A stretch of DNA of 64,000 nt from an uncultured Chloroflexia bacterium. Lineage in GTDB: Bacteria > Chloroflexota > Limnocylindria > QHBO01. The notes beneath the pieces were generated by a model, which made no database searches, was not told the origin of the DNA, and saw only the letters and a program-made list of their open reading frames with translations. The stretch is from assembly GCA_963725885.1 (NCBI GenBank), contig CAVSAH010000008.1, forward strand, positions 65,858-129,857, written 5' to 3'. Of the stretch, positions 21,935-34,986 are shown piece after piece (position 1 is the first letter of the stretch; each line of letters starts with the position of its first letter). The position numbers were made by a program, and so were the translations under genes.

Positions 21935-23143
21935 TCAGAGGTCGCAGGTGTCCGGCTCGGATCCCAGGAGCCGCGGCGCCAGCAGCCCGAGGGCGAGCAG
22001 CAGAGCCACGCCCATGAGCGGCGCGCCGATGCGCTTGATCTCGGCCGTATCCGCGACCAGCCCGACCATGAACACCGCCAGCCCGAGGTTGACGCCCCAG
22101 AACACGAGGTGCGGGACCCAGGAAGAGACCGCCCCACGGCCCATCACGAGCAGGCTGAGCAGCCCGATGACGATGTTGGTCAGGACACCGATGTACACGG
22201 CGTGGTCGCTGGCCAGCAGGATGTTGAGCGGCAGCGCGTTCGGGTCGTCGGGGTTCGCGATGACCTGGCTGACGAGGTACATGAACAGGATCAGGGCCAG
22301 CACGGTCCAGAGCGAGGCGACTGCGAAGTGGCGACCCGGGGCCGGGCTTCCCCATGCGGAGCGCAGGGCAGCCGGCCAGACGCGGGCGACGAAGAGCACG
22401 ACCGCCACGAGCTGCGTCAGCAGGTAGATCCCGCCACCGGCCTGCTCGGCGCCGGCGAGCAGCGCCACCGAGATGACGAGCCCACCGAGGAAGAGGCTCG
22501 CGACCTGGATGATGCCGAGCACCGGCAGTCCCTGCGTGCCGCGGAGGCGCCACTCGATCAGGCCCATCGCCGCCAGAACGATGTAGCCGAACGTCATGGC
22601 CGATGCGTGGGCTCCGATCTGGTCGCCCGGCAGGATCGCCATGTCCATCGCCAGCGCGACCTGGATGAGCACGCCGATGACCGCGCCGTACGCGAACGAG
22701 GTGATCGCCAGCGTCACGGCGAGCTTCGGGATGGTCTTCTCCTCGGCGAGAAAGCGGCCCCAGGTCCAGATCACGAGCCAGACGATGACCAGCAGGAGCG
22801 CGGTCCCGGCGACGGCACGAAACGGCAGGTTGCCGGTGAAGAACGCGACGACGTAGACCGGGACGAGGACCGCCAGCGCCAGCATGAGCCGCCGATCGGC
22901 CGCGCGGAAGAGGAGGAAGGCCGATGCCACGATCGTGAGCGACAGCCACCCGACCGTCCCGGAGTGGACGTGGGTCAGCAGCGCATTGCGGTCGAACTCG
23001 ACCAGGTCGGCGCCGTTGAGGATGCCGATGCCGATGGTGACGATGAACACGGCCGCCGCGACGAGGTAGAGGTCGCGGGCGGTGCGTGCCCAGTCGGGCG
23101 CGGGCGCGGATGTCGCGGTGGCATTGGCAGTCGCAGCGGTCAT
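21935..23143 (-). CDS. Polytopic (~12 TM) membrane protein with intramembrane histidines; family not recognised
   Basis: Intact 402-aa ORF. The ATG at 23143 overlaps the cyclase-STAND stop (ATGA). His-containing segments: THVHSGTVGW, GAHASAMTFGY, ASDHAVYIG. Confidence 0.6.
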   Translation of the reverse strand: MTAATANATATSAPAPDWARTARDLYLVAAAVFIVTIGIGILNGADLVEFDRNALLTHVHSGTVGWLSLTIVASAFLLFRAADRRLMLALAVLVPVYVVAFFTGNLPFRAVAGTALLLVIVWLVIWTWGRFLAEEKTIPKLAVTLAITSFAYGAVIGVLIQVALAMDMAILPGDQIGAHASAMTFGYIVLAAMGLIEWRLRGTQGLPVLGIIQVASLFLGGLVISVALLAGAEQAGGGIYLLTQLVAVVLFVARVWPAALRSAWGSPAPGRHFAVASLWTVLALILFMYLVSQVIANPDDPNALPLNILLASDHAVYIGVLTNIVIGLLSLLVMGRGAVSSWVPHLVFWGVNLGLAVFMVGLVADTAEIKRIGAPLMGVALLLALGLLAPRLLGSEPDTCDL

Positions 23144-26100
23144 GGGCGGGCCTCCACTTCGGCGGTTATGGTCGTTGGCGATTCGGCGCGCGCGAGCGCC
23201 GCGTCGAGGGCGGTGATTCGGGCTGCGGCCCCGAGCTCGACGAAGAGGGCGCGGGCCTCATCGGCCCAGCGGCGCACATCCGGCTCGTCGGGCAGCAGCG
23301 CGGCCGCGGTGAGCACCGCGAGGGCCGCCTCGTAGGCGACGCCGATGCGCAAGAACGTCGTGCGCGCCTCCGAGAGCGCCGCCAGCGCCGCCGGGGTGCG
23401 GCCCTCGACGGCTGCCACGGCACCGGCAGCCTCGGCTCGCTGCCCGCTCGCCCACGCTCCGCTCTGCGGCATCTCATCAATCCCGGCGGCCGCGGTGCGG
23501 ATCGCGTCGGGATCGCGCGCGGCCGCGCCGCAGCGCACCGCGAATCCCAGCGCGACCTCCGGAGACTGCGTGTCCTCGGCCGCGATCATCGCCTCGGCGT
23601 AGGCTCGCGCGGGGTCGCCCATGGCCTCCGCCGCGAGGCTCAGGGATAAGTGAAGGTTGAATTTCGCGTCGGGATCGTCGCTGTCGCCGGCCAGTGCGGT
23701 CATGTCGGCGACGAGCTCTTCGAGATGAATCCCACGTGCCGACTCGAGCAGGCCGATCATCGAGCGCAGTCGCATCCGGTCCCCGGAGAGCGTCGAGCCC
23801 TCGTAGGCCTCCCACAGCGACGCGAGGGTCTCGTCCCAGTCCCGACCCGTGCTGAACGCCATGGCCGCAGCCGTCCCGAGCAGCCAGTTGTAGTTGCCGC
23901 GGTCGCCGATCTCCCGAGCGCGCTCCGCCCCGGCCCGGAACATCTCGGCGGCGAGCACCGGCTCGTCTTCGGAGAGGGCCGTGGCGAGGTTGTTCCGGAT
24001 ACGCAGCTCGACGCTGCGGTCGCCGACCTTGACCGCAAGATCGAGGGCTGCGTCCTGCAGCGCGACGGCCTCGCGTCGCCGCCCCAGCCCCGACAGGCCG
24101 CTCCCCTTGTTGACGAGCCCCTCGACGATGATCGGCTCGAGGTTGTGCCGCTCCGCGATGGCGAGGGCTCGGTCCGCCGCGGCCACGGCGGCGGCGCTGT
24201 CGCCGTTGCGCATCTCGGCACGGGCGAGGTACACGAGCGTCTCCGCCAGCACCGTATCGTCGCCCATGGCCTCGGCCTCGGGGACCGCAGCCGCCAGCAG
24301 CTCCCGGGCTCGTCCGACCTCGCCACCATCGATCAGCGCCTTGCCGAGGCGGGCGGTCGCGCGGGCTGCTCCGGCAGGGTCGCCGAGCTGGCGATAGGCC
24401 TCCACCGCCCCGGCCGCGTATGGCTCGGCCGCAAGCGAGGCAGCGATTGCCGAGATGGCCGCGCGCTCCAGGAGATCGGCGCGCTCGGCGGGTGCCGTCG
24501 TGACCTCGAGTGCCTGTTCGAGATAGGTGATGGCCTGGTCGTGGCCGCCGAGCGCAGCGGCGCGGTTGGCCGCAGCACCGAGAGCAAGGCGGGCCTGGGC
24601 CGCGACCGCATCGGCCTCGGCGCCCTCGTCCGACGCCTCGTGGGCCGCGAGGTAGTGGGACGCCAGCGCACCGGCCATCTCCTCGTCGCCGATCGACTCG
24701 TAGTGGCGGGCGACGGCCAAGTGGCGAGCGCGCCGATCGCGGCGTGACAGCGTCCCGTACGCCACCTCGCGGATGAGGGACTGCACGAACTTGTGCTGTC
24801 CGCGCTCGGGGGAGACCGGATCCCGCTCGATGTCGAGGATCTCGCGACGGACCAGGTCGCGCAGCCGCGGCTCGAGGTCCGAGGTCGAGATGCCCGTGAC
24901 CGCCGAGAGCGCGTCCGTGGTGAACGTCTGGCCCAGGACGGCCGCATCCTGGAGCAGGCTCCGATCCTCCGGCGGCAGCGCGTCGAGCCTCGAGGCGATA
25001 AGCGAGCGCAGGGTGTCGGGCACGCGCATCGAGGCCAGGTCGCCACTCGGCTCGTAGACGTCGCCCTGGCGGCGGATGAGGCCGTCGGCGAGAAGCCCGC
25101 GGACCGTCTCGACCGCGTAGAGCGGGACGCCCTCCGCGCGCCCCACGATGGCGGCCAGCGCGTCATCGGGGAGGCCCGGCACCAGGCCGTTGAGCAGCTC
25201 GCGGACCGCGGCATCGGGCAGCGGCTGGAGCGCCAGTGCGGTCAGGTGGCGGCGGCTCGAAGCCCAATCGGGGCGTCGGTCGAACAGCTCAGGTCGGGCC
25301 AGCGTGACGACCATGATCGGCAGTCCGCGCGACCAGTCGAGGAGGTGGTCGATGAAGTCGAGAAGGCCCGCATCGGCCCATTGGAGGTCCTCGAAGACCA
25401 GCACAGTCGTGCCACGCTCGGCGATCCGCTCGAAGAAGAGGAGCCAGGCCGGGAACAGGGCCTCCCGGCCTCCCGCTGGCCCGGCGTCGACCCCCAGCAG
25501 GGCCAGGAGCGCGGGGCCGATGCGCTCGCGCTCGCCCGGGTCGGCAACGTACTCGTCCAGCGTCGCGGCGATGCGCTCGCGGGTGGTGGCCTCGTCGGCG
25601 TCCTCGGCCAGCTTGGCCCGGCGCCGGACCATCTCGCCCAGGGCCCAGAACGTGATTCCCTCGCCGTACGACGGCGAGCGGCCGGTATGCCAGTAGATGT
25701 CCTCGGCGACACCGTCGATGTACTTGAGGAGCTCCCAGGTCAGACGGCTCTTGCCGATCCCACCCGGGCCGGTGATCGACACGAGCCGGACCCGGCGTTC
25801 GCGCCCGACCGCGTGGAGCACGTCCTTCAGCTCGCGCAGCTCTTCGTCGCGGCCGACGAACGGAGCCTCGAGCGACTCGGCGCGTCCCTGGCCGCCGCGC
25901 TGTGCGACGACCCGGACCGCGCGCCACGCAGGCACAGGGCTCGTCTTGCCCTTAAGCGAGTGCTCGCCGATCGGCTCGAAGACGACCGCCGACTCGGCGG
26001 CGCGCATCGTCGACTCACCGACGAGCACGGTCCCGGCCTCGGCTACCCCCTGGAGCCGCGCCGCGGTGTTGACGAGGTCCCCTGCCACCATCCCTTGGTT

Positions 26101-34062: not shown

Positions 34063-34915
34063 TCACATCGACGGGGCTTGGACCAGCTGGGGAACGACGC
34101 GGGCCGCGAGCGTCCGATACAGGCCGGCGAGCGGGTCGTCGGGATGCCGCAGCACGAAGACGCCCTCGCTGGCGAGGCCCATGAGCTCGTCCGAGTGCGG
34201 CAGCACGATCGCGACGTCGCAGCCGTACGCCTCGGTCACCCGGGCCGCGACCGCCGCCGGATCGAGGTGCGCCGGCGCCTTGTTGACGACGATGTGGATG
34301 CCCGGCACCTCGAGCTCGCGCGCGACGCGCGCGGTGATGCCGGTGCCCTCGTAGTCCTGGCGGTCCGGCCGCATGACGATGAGGAGCACGTGCGAGATGA
34401 CGAGCGAGAGGAGCGTCTCCTCGTTCAGGCCAGGGTGCGTGTCGATGAAGAGCACGTCGAGCGACAGGGCATCCACCAGCTCGCGGATCCCCGCGGTGAG
34501 CCGCTGGGCGTCGTAGCCCTCGCGCAGGACGCGGGTGATCTCACCCGGCTGCATGCTCGACGGGATGAGGAACAGCCGGCCGGCGATGTCGGCGTTCAGG
34601 CTCTCGGTGACGTCGAGCGCGACATCGGCGATCTCACGTCCGTGCCACAGGTAGTCGTTCAGCGACGCGGTGACCGTGTCGCCGGTGAGCCCGAAGAGAA
34701 CGTGGATGCCAGGGCGACTGGATGTCGCCGTCGATGACACCGACTCGATGTCCGGCCGCGGCAACGACGGCGGCCAGGTTGGCCGTCGTGTTCGACTTGC
34801 CGGTTCCCCCACGGAACGAGTGGACAGAGATGATCGTTGCCACGGGCTCGGGCGCTCCGTCGTGCGGTGCGCGGAGGGTACGCGATCCGCGCCATCGCAG
34901 GAACCCCCAGCGCAC
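34063..34915 (-). CDS. ParA/MinD-family P-loop ATPase with Arg in the signature-Lys position; one frame switch
   Basis: VATIISVHSFRGGTGKSNTTANLAAVVAAAGHRVGVIDGDIQSP (ORF 34634-34915) continues after ~34725 as GIHVLFGL..LFIDTHPGLNEETL..IVVNKAP (ORF 34063-34926). Start at 34915 or GTG at 34843. Confidence 0.75.
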
Positions 34916-34986
34916 GGGCTTGACACCCGTCGGTGTTCAGCACTACCTTGACATTCACCTTTGTATGAATGGTAGGGACCGGCTGA

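Follow-up and report, generated by a model that had tools for sequence, protein, structure and literature searches.

A MinD/ParA-like ATPase and a predicted LeuT-fold permease share a conserved signalling operon with a phosphorelay and a coiled-coil adaptor in Chloroflexota

When the genes for a MinD/ParA-like ATPase, a permease-like protein and a complete phosphorelay follow one another almost without spacing, how many of them belong to one system, and what does the relay control? This question is raised by a locus of an uncultured Chloroflexia bacterium (assembly GCA_963725885.1, contig CAVSAH010000008.1), found in a stretch of 64,000 nucleotides with a G+C content of about 71%, hereafter called the window. 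The initial annotation of the window described seven co-directional minus-strand genes as one coupled system. Open reading frame (ORF) listing and Pfam scans confirmed the seven genes, from 21935 to about 34843 (Table 1), and Pfam returned the claimed domain series of the ATPase, permease, kinase, Hpt, REC and cyclase proteins. Re-reading of the sequence gave exactly the junctions described: a 10-nt gap between the ATPase and permease genes, an ATGA overlap of permease and kinase, overlaps of 8 nt (kinase-Hpt) and 11 nt (Hpt-REC), a 56-nt gap between the REC and cyclase genes, and an ATGA overlap of the cyclase gene with the gene of a protein with 12 transmembrane (TM) helices. Both the 8-nt and the 11-nt overlap are also present in locus L001, which is 73% identical to the window. 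The ATPase start, given as 34915/34926, is better placed at the GTG at 34843, which has GGAG upstream and is favoured by comparison with the L001 orthologue. It turned out that tight gene spacing alone exaggerates the size of a "system". Comparison with relatives showed a conserved signalling operon of five genes, encoding the ATPase, the predicted LeuT-fold permease, a hybrid kinase, Hpt and an adaptor made of REC and a HAMP-like/coiled-coil (CC) domain. A cyclase-STAND-TPR gene and a heme-copper-oxidase-like gene are downstream additions to it.

About 160 related loci were compared in total. A scan over GTDB with the permease as anchor, in which each species was represented by one genome, gave 77 loci, and gene occurrence in them was determined by tblastn and ORF clustering. 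They belong to Chloroflexota (Limnocylindria, Anaerolineae, Caldilineaceae, Thermomicrobiales), Actinomycetota (Gaiellaceae, Thermoleophilaceae), Dormibacterota and one Scytonema metagenome-assembled genome (MAG). The ATPase is present in 57 of the 77 loci, the kinase in 30, the REC adaptor in 25 and Hpt in 21. Of the 66 loci with room, 43 have the ATPase gene no more than 400 nt from the permease gene, and 54 have it at a distance of up to 10 kb. Twenty-eight permease loci have at least 6 kb on both sides; 24 of these carry the ATPase, 24 the CC domain and 23 both. The presence of ATPase and CC is associated across the 77 loci (Fisher p = 6e-7), and in 14 of them the CC gene ends no more than 250 nt upstream of the ATPase gene. 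We also used an ATPase-anchored metagenome scan, which gave at least 600 stretches; 577 of the 600 listed encode a relative. Among the matches listed, a permease gene begins immediately after the ATPase gene in 23 of the 52 loci that have room, and 13 of the 14 loci flanked by 3 kb or more on each side carry a permease or CC gene. The position, strand and sensor domains of the kinase are highly variable, and the ATPase-permease-CC set is constant; triads without a nearby kinase exist (for example, L081). Over the whole sample, what stays together is the ATPase, a protein with CC at its end and, usually, the permease; the kinase and Hpt usually accompany them.

The CC domain is the part of the adaptor that says most about its role. 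Pfam found in the REC adaptor no DNA-binding or enzymatic output besides this domain. It is about 105 aa long and highly conserved, with a HAMP-like segment (DxLGxLARxFxxM), a coiled coil (LRIEID) and a final VxEITxxDYFxxL. In nine loci a cNMP_binding-CC protein stands in place of REC-CC directly beside the ATPase/permease genes, and the CC C-termini of these proteins are 47–49% identical to that of REC-CC. A HMMER search with the CC domain of the window against 1.84 billion (1.84e9) representative proteins yielded 1672 matches. For 594 of these E is 1e-10 or lower, and in the best 150 of the 1672 the match is C-terminal. The heads of 110 CC proteins of at least 200 aa include REC (53), HAMP (33), HisKA (31), GAF (15), cNMP_binding (10) and PAS (6). 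Further heads are Cache, CHASE3/4HB, MASE1 and WD40, and both HisKA-REC proteins and membrane sensors occur. When three CC proteins were picked independently of the permease (L083, L084, L086), an SFRGGTGKS ATPase gene followed directly after the CC gene in all three. Judged by these architectures, CC carries an exchangeable sensory head. Because the CC domain stays with the ATPase and permease while its head swaps, and because kinases can be absent, we infer that CC is the element addressing the ATPase, and that the ATPase and permease are the likely output.

Does the relay feed the cyclase instead? The initial annotation had taken the permease and the Cache domain as inputs, with the relay acting through the REC-coiled-coil adaptor on the cyclase-STAND protein, a cyclic nucleotide monophosphate (cNMP) acting together with the 12-TM protein, and the ATPase as a scaffold. 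In agreement with this, the cyclase gene comes next after REC-CC, with a gap of 56–66 nt, in the window and in L001, L002, L005 and L006. The stop of the cyclase gene overlaps the start of the 12-TM gene in ATGA, and cNMP-binding proteins recur near the module in other clades. However, the segment between the REC gene and a luciferase-like gene differs between relatives. The closest relative, a JGI contig of 90% identity, has the order ATPase, permease, kinase, Hpt, REC, 12-TM, luciferase-like; the cyclase gene is missing, and the 12-TM gene directly follows REC. L001, L002, L005 and L006 have REC, cyclase and luciferase-like genes, and no 12-TM gene in the cluster. In L070 and L072 an opposite-strand gene lies between REC and cyclase, and in L008, L009 and L070 the operon ends at REC-CC and opposite-strand genes come next (unrelated ones in L008 and L009). 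This segment is thus variable, and the conserved operon stops at the REC gene. The cyclase-STAND gene was found in only 6 of the 77 permease loci at full coverage, with a partial copy at the contig end of L036; all loci that have it are Limnocylindria with a permease identity of at least 47%. Its linkage reaches only slightly deeper than the linkage of the ArsR, MFS and luciferase-like genes on the flanks, which are unrelated. The 12-TM protein lacks a cNMP-binding domain and is usually encoded in other contexts, and the CC domain tracks the ATPase and not the cyclase. The cyclase wiring is thus, in our view, very improbable. The cyclase gene is best seen, on this comparison, as a lineage-restricted optional neighbour outside the conserved core; a functional tie to the module, for example through binding of cNMP by the GAF domain of the kinase, is possible as speculation. 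What stands of the initial annotation is the conserved linkage of ParA-like ATPase, permease and relay, and what falls is the seven-gene extent: the ATPase, permease, kinase, Hpt and REC-CC genes are syntenic in related genomes, the cyclase gene is restricted, and the 12-TM gene is usually elsewhere.

In our best reading, to which we give a probability of about one half, the signal would run from the relay through the CC adaptor and an ATPase switch to the permease. The Cache/GAF/PAS kinase would sense a signal, and phosphate would be handed His-Asp-His-Asp, by way of Hpt, to the REC domain of the adaptor. Phosphorylation of REC would alter the dimeric HAMP/coiled-coil output, which would engage the ATPase as MinE, ParB or McdB engage other ParA/MinD ATPases. 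An ATP-dependent ATPase dimer would then bind the cytoplasmic N- and/or C-terminal domains of the permease and control its activity, assembly or membrane placement. The direction of signalling would probably be the reverse of that proposed earlier from transceptor through relay and REC adaptor to cyclase, which does not agree with a CC domain that tracks the ATPase and permease under changing heads, sometimes with no kinase. The relay itself is complete. All of its domains score above the Pfam cut-offs in the pieces from the window and in the L001 orthologues, and the motifs SHEIRTP, HSLKS and MPEMDG are visible. The intact L001 kinase orthologue has 1475 aa, with its Pfam domains confirmed, and NCBIfam models relate the kinase to hybrid kinases of the TorS/BarA/ArcB type. 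A comparison of the kinase sensor region with PDB sequences gave a HAMP match only, from which the Cache ligand cannot be deduced.

The ATPase belongs to the ParA/MinD fold family. Pfam ParA, CbiA and AAA_31 all score above their cut-offs, and the closest solved structures are the archaeal MinD proteins 1HYQ and 1G3Q. In a full-length alignment GKS, VIDGDI and FIDTHPG of the ATPase align with the P-loop, DxD and Walker B motifs of 1HYQ. The Walker A motif is SFRGGTGKS, in which Arg occupies the signature-Lys position and the P-loop Lys is kept; the unusual RGGTGKS had been pointed out at the outset, and the sequence bears this out. The deviant Walker A of ParA/MinD ATPases, xKGGxxGK[ST] with an N-terminal signature Lys, is thereby not matched. 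SFRGGTGKS is the form found in 42 of the 43 orthologues that bear the motif, and every sequence of the alignment has R11. By eye, without hydrophobic-moment analysis, the ATPase tails contain no MinD-like C-terminal amphipathic helix.

These features bear on whether the protein could be a classical positioning ATPase on the nucleoid or membrane, with the module determining where in the cell (at the pole, at the septum or at regular spacing) a signalling or transport cluster lies, and not gating transport. MinD as the closest solved structure fits this idea, as does a second ATPase paralogue in some loci, and the winged helix-turn-helix (wHTH) domain of the long-form permeases described below might touch DNA. 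ParA/MinD ATPases from signalling operons position chemoreceptor arrays, carboxysomes and secretion machines, but the 2024 review of ParA/MinD cargos lists no transporter among them (PMC11407121). Moreover, the signature Lys has given way to Arg, a substitution shared with BcsQ, which is complex-bound and does not oscillate, and the tails, seen by eye, lack the MinD-like helix. We find a pure positioning role quite unlikely; it also overlaps with the relay-to-permease reading, which includes placement.

Several known systems resemble the ATPase part of the module. BcsQ works on an inner-membrane machine, as a subunit bound to it or as its regulator, and is not a DNA partitioner. It is a member of the MinD/ParA family (PDB 6YBB/6YAR) with Arg at the signature-Lys position (RGGVGTT in BcsQ, RGGTGKS here). 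However, BcsQ is not among the sequence matches of our ATPase at E<=1e-3, its context is cellulose synthase with BcsR/BcsE, which are absent here, and the P-loop Lys is kept here (GKS versus GTT). In TadZ/CpaE, too, a membrane machine is controlled by a MinD-type ATPase joined to a receiver domain. Here, in contrast, the ATPase, of about 260 aa, is a protein of its own, REC and ATPase are linked by a dedicated HAMP-like/coiled-coil domain, REC is part of a full phosphorelay, and no pilus genes were found in the window locus or its relatives. A CpaE-like REC-ATPase fusion was seen at the end of locus L079. In the cargo-dedicated systems PpfA/ParC (chemoreceptor arrays), McdA-McdB (carboxysomes), FlhG and PomZ, a small deviant-Walker-A ATPase is also encoded beside its client, the partner or adaptor is often a coiled-coil protein, and the genes are embedded in a signal-transduction cluster. 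Unlike in these, the putative client here is a secondary-transporter-like membrane protein, the signature Lys is Arg, and the protein presumed to be the partner is sensory, with input heads that can be exchanged.

What kind of protein is the putative client? In the AlphaFold2 model of the permease (predicted local distance difference test (pLDDT) 80.8, predicted TM-score (pTM) 0.80) a 12-TM core is flanked by a cytoplasmic helical N-domain (~1-160) and a cytoplasmic C-terminal beta-sandwich (~610-708). Foldseek matched the model to BasC, GkApcT, LAT1/2, LysP, AdiC and LAX3 with probability 1.00 and target-normalised TM-scores of 0.6–0.77. As expected of a LeuT fold, TM1 and TM6 are broken in the model, at 177-178 and 360-362. 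The invariant motifs TETIGEG and FGHTSAAN coincide with these two helix breaks, that is, with the canonical substrate site. Because the invariant motifs sit there, the permease probably still binds a small amino-acid-like ligand. By Pfam the window permease scores 16.9 bits against Aa_trans (PF01490), below the cut-off of 25.6, and the L001 permease 27.3 bits over TM1-3 only; PF01490 or PF03222 is found on many permease homologues. The permease profile gave no usable match among PDB sequences and there is no NCBIfam model for it, and an exact-sequence look-up of the window permease and 12-TM proteins returned no record. On the Foldseek result the permease is a LeuT-fold transporter of an uncharacterised subfamily. 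We considered the N-terminal FSRxELLxGLPxRRA as an ATPase-contact motif and rejected it, since it is family-wide and kept also in loci without an ATPase gene. Long-form paralogues of the permease (~950-1000 aa; L055-L066; P0398, P0405, P0435, P0468, P0511) contain an inserted winged-helix domain (HTH_IclR/MarR_2), which falls at the TM8-TM9 cytoplasmic loop. Such a protein could be a membrane-anchored DNA-binding transporter.

A transporter of this fold beside a kinase recalls the trigger transporters. In LysP-CadC and DctA-DcuS the transporter reports to a sensor. By analogy the permease would report substrate flux to the hybrid kinase, the ATPase and adaptor would only modulate this sensing complex or feed back on it, and the real output would lie elsewhere in the genome. 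The permease and kinase genes are coupled by ATGA in the window, L001 and L079, SBP_bac_3 (6 loci), SBP_bac_5 (8 loci) and dCache sensors occur beside the permease, and LysP is one of its structural neighbours. As in LysP-CadC, DctA-DcuS and UhpC-UhpB, an APC/LeuT-fold permease is genetically tied to a sensory system. However, those systems have neither a ParA/MinD ATPase nor a CC adaptor, and here the permease goes with the output side of the pathway and not with the sensor. The triads of cNMP-binding-CC or REC-CC without a nearby kinase also disagree with a co-sensor, as does a kinase of variable position, strand and sensor domains next to a fixed ATPase-permease-CC set. In addition, the terminal response regulator has CC as its only output, with no DNA-binding or enzymatic one. 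We consider such a co-sensing system rather unlikely.

Several observations weigh against the control of the permease by the relay through the ATPase. All of the mechanistic arrows are drawn from gene order and domain swapping. The genes for solute-binding proteins and Cache kinases beside the permease also fit permease co-sensing. Arg in place of the signature Lys could mean that ATP hydrolysis is altered or absent. Loci of the long-form permeases are often without an adjacent ATPase gene, which hints at another role. Finally, about half of the ATPase-anchored metagenome loci listed lack the permease. In these loci a gene for a sensor-HAMP or Tll0287-like protein lies upstream of the ATPase gene. 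Downstream of the SFRGGTGKS ATPase gene they have a second divergent ParA-like paralogue, a SpoIIE-type PP2C phosphatase, or an ATP-grasp gene and after it the gene of an MFS transporter that has a long extension at its N-terminus (L117 7837-8625, L161 7938-8693, L152 7839-8729, L119 6598-10341). Other genes found there encode a REC-wHTH-NB-ARC-TPR regulator or a HEAT/cNMP-binding protein. Because about half of the ATPase-anchored loci have such neighbours in place of the permease, the ATPase may be a general switch serving several clients.

No description of the ATPase-permease-regulator module was found in the full-text literature searched, and each of its nearest analogues (cargo-dedicated ParA/MinD systems, BcsQ, TadZ/CpaE and trigger transporters) differs from it in defining features. 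The module, akin to ParA/MinD client systems and two-component outputs, draws on strong comparative evidence from gene neighbourhoods. As a tentative proposal, possible rather than probable, CC would be a previously unrecognised output domain that links many inputs (phosphorelay receivers, cNMP-binding, GAF and PAS domains, membrane HAMP receptors) to a dedicated Arg-variant MinD/ParA ATPase, which in turn would control membrane clients post-translationally, above all the LeuT-fold permease. If this is true, it would be a new output class in bacterial signal transduction and the first transporter "cargo" of a ParA/MinD ATPase, and these ATPases, besides acting on DNA, organelles and secretion machines, would govern a solute permease in response to signals. 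In many response regulators and one-component sensors no output domain can be recognised. If the CC domain addresses the ATPase, a sizeable set of them (1672 representative clusters) would gain a function. Among abundant soil Chloroflexota (Limnocylindria, Anaerolineae, Caldilineaceae) the module is frequent, and some Actinomycetota have it as well; to our knowledge, nutrient sensing in these bacteria is almost unstudied.

Could the locus be a decaying pseudogene cluster without current function? About ten frameshifts, found by tblastn against orthologues and by frame analysis, are spread over five of the seven genes. Indels were placed through protein-level high-scoring pairs, since the DNA alignment to relatives (~77% identity) was too noisy. 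The ATPase gene has one at ~34712, a single inserted T outside any homopolymer. In the permease a frameshift is probable in the extreme C-terminal tail (~31911). The kinase gene has at least five (~30725, two or three within 30420-30560, ~28978, ~28340), the REC-CC gene one at ~27265, which divides the REC domain between two frames, and the cyclase gene two (~26430, ~26125). However, unrelated housekeeping-type genes of the window (TAL, TPP enzyme, AP endonuclease, GFO oxidoreductase, MFS) are broken at a similar density. Third-position G+C (GC3) periodicity exceeds 0.9 in each shifted segment, similar frameshifts occur in other long-read MAG loci (for example, L006 and L072), and the orthologues are unbroken in short-read assemblies. 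Because unrelated genes across the window are affected alike, the frameshifts are assembly error and not decay, and the window is consistent with an unpolished long-read MAG; gene decay deserves hardly any credence. Over the whole window there is about one frameshift per 1-1.5 kb (for example, ~14605, ~16283, ~17190, ~18638, ~18785, ~36485). Because the protein P0001 is 100% identical to the window permease including the tail, the deposited source contig apparently has the same sequence. Where long-read MAGs are error-prone, a comparison with relatives should precede any call of a pseudogene.

Table 1. Genes of the locus and a palindrome upstream of them, in window coordinates
Feature	Coordinates	Strand	Evidence
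MinD/ParA-like ATPase, ~259 aa	34063..34843	-	Pfam ParA/CbiA/AAA_31; tblastn vs L001 orthologue
Permease-like protein, 746 aa, alternative start 34028	31812..34052	-	AlphaFold2 model, Foldseek, weak Aa_trans
Hybrid histidine kinase, ~1350 aa, dCache_1-HAMP-GAF-PAS-PAS-HisKA-HATPase_c-REC-REC	27762..31815	-	Pfam
Hpt phosphotransfer protein, 119 aa	27410..27769	-	Pfam Hpt, 52 bits; HSLKS motif
REC + HAMP-like/coiled-coil (CC) adaptor, ~240 aa	26697..27420	-	Pfam; CC output domain 26700-27032
Double Zn-ribbon/class III cyclase/AAA_16 (STAND)/TPR protein, ~1166 aa	23140..26640	-	Pfam DZR, Guanylate_cyc, AAA_16, TPR
12-TM membrane protein, 402 aa, heme-copper oxidase/NO reductase subunit I-like	21935..23143	-	AlphaFold2, Foldseek
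Palindrome ATTCATACAAAGGTGAAT, candidate operator/promoter region	34953..34970		Read straight from the sequence

The two downstream additions were also characterised. The cyclase is of class III: PF00211 matches the fragment with 49 bits and the L001 protein with 65.7 bits, and the catalytic motifs FTDLVGFT, KFIGDA and VNTAARL are visible after frame repair. Cyclase-STAND-TPR proteins of Actinomycetota, of the M. tuberculosis Rv0386/Rv1358/Rv2488c type, and the TOMM kinase/cyclase fusion (TIGR03903) share with the window protein a class III cyclase, an AAA_16/NB-ARC ATPase and TPR repeats. The window protein differs in that it begins with a double zinc ribbon and lacks a LuxR HTH at the C-terminus. 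Paralogues of the cyclase-STAND-TPR protein are scattered in the same genomes (upstream copies in L006 and L072). A Pycsar/STAND defence role was considered and rejected: the partial PADLOC matches to PycC models reflect shared class III cyclase homology, and the adjacent 12-TM protein has no PADLOC or cNMP_binding match.

As claimed, the last protein has 12 TM helices; "His-rich", as it had been called, it is not, with 6 His in 402 residues (1.5%). It has no Pfam or NCBIfam match and no usable match among PDB sequences by profile. The AlphaFold2 model (pLDDT 70, pTM 0.76) resembles subunit I of heme-copper oxidases and NO reductases. All top six Foldseek matches are subunits I of cNOR, cbb3, ba3 and qNOR, with query TM-scores of 0.49–0.66 and a best E-value of only 6.6e-3 for a model of that pLDDT. 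Four His are invariant in the family (H58, H60, H179, H314) and a fifth is common (H345), compared with six canonical heme/CuB/FeB ligands. The gene adjoins the cluster in three genomes only, at two different positions. It is found in 1 of the 77 permease loci (L036), upstream of the ATPase gene, and the orthologue in L001 lies downstream, another ~9 kb away, with unrelated TetR, ABC and Na/Ca-exchanger genes for neighbours. With contexts that differ between genomes, the protein, proposed earlier as part of the system, is judged unrelated to the module. Its family (homologues P0123-P0242) is unannotated and highly conserved in Limnocylindria/Chloroflexota, with 1047 matches mostly at ~70% identity. 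On the L001 contig a heliorhodopsin gene (L082 12169-12981, minus strand) lies ~5 kb downstream of the 12-TM orthologue.

A promoter and terminator scan of the locus was uninformative: it gave no promoter-like sites, and its sole terminator-like match lies inside the permease gene. The 56-nt gap between REC-CC and cyclase (26641-26696, minus strand) contains a 9-bp GC-rich hairpin with a CGGCGGAG-UACG-CUCCGCCG core, whose stability is not beyond that of shuffled controls (z = -1.6 or worse); a similar GGUACGC-centred hairpin, a weak counterpart, is present in L002. On the other side of the operon, the palindrome of Table 1 falls within an AT-richer divergent region between the ATPase start and an ArsR-type gene (34987-35589) and may be an ArsR operator. 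The ArsR-type gene is followed by an MFS gene (35586-36992), and the ArsR-MFS pair is also upstream in L001, L005, L006 and L072. In the window, the genes that follow downstream of the cluster include a sugar-metabolism block (transaldolase, TPP enzyme, AP_endonuc_2, GFO_IDH_MocA; 14207-18980), which in L001 is found upstream of it (925-5751), and this difference in gene order indicates a local rearrangement around the module. Further from the operon, a c-di-GMP-II-GAG riboswitch (Rfam RF03169; 38285-38369, plus strand) scores 58.8 bits against a gathering score of 40. It is located ~190 nt upstream of a surface-protein gene (38556-41231) with GSDH beta-propeller, PKD and SLH domains.

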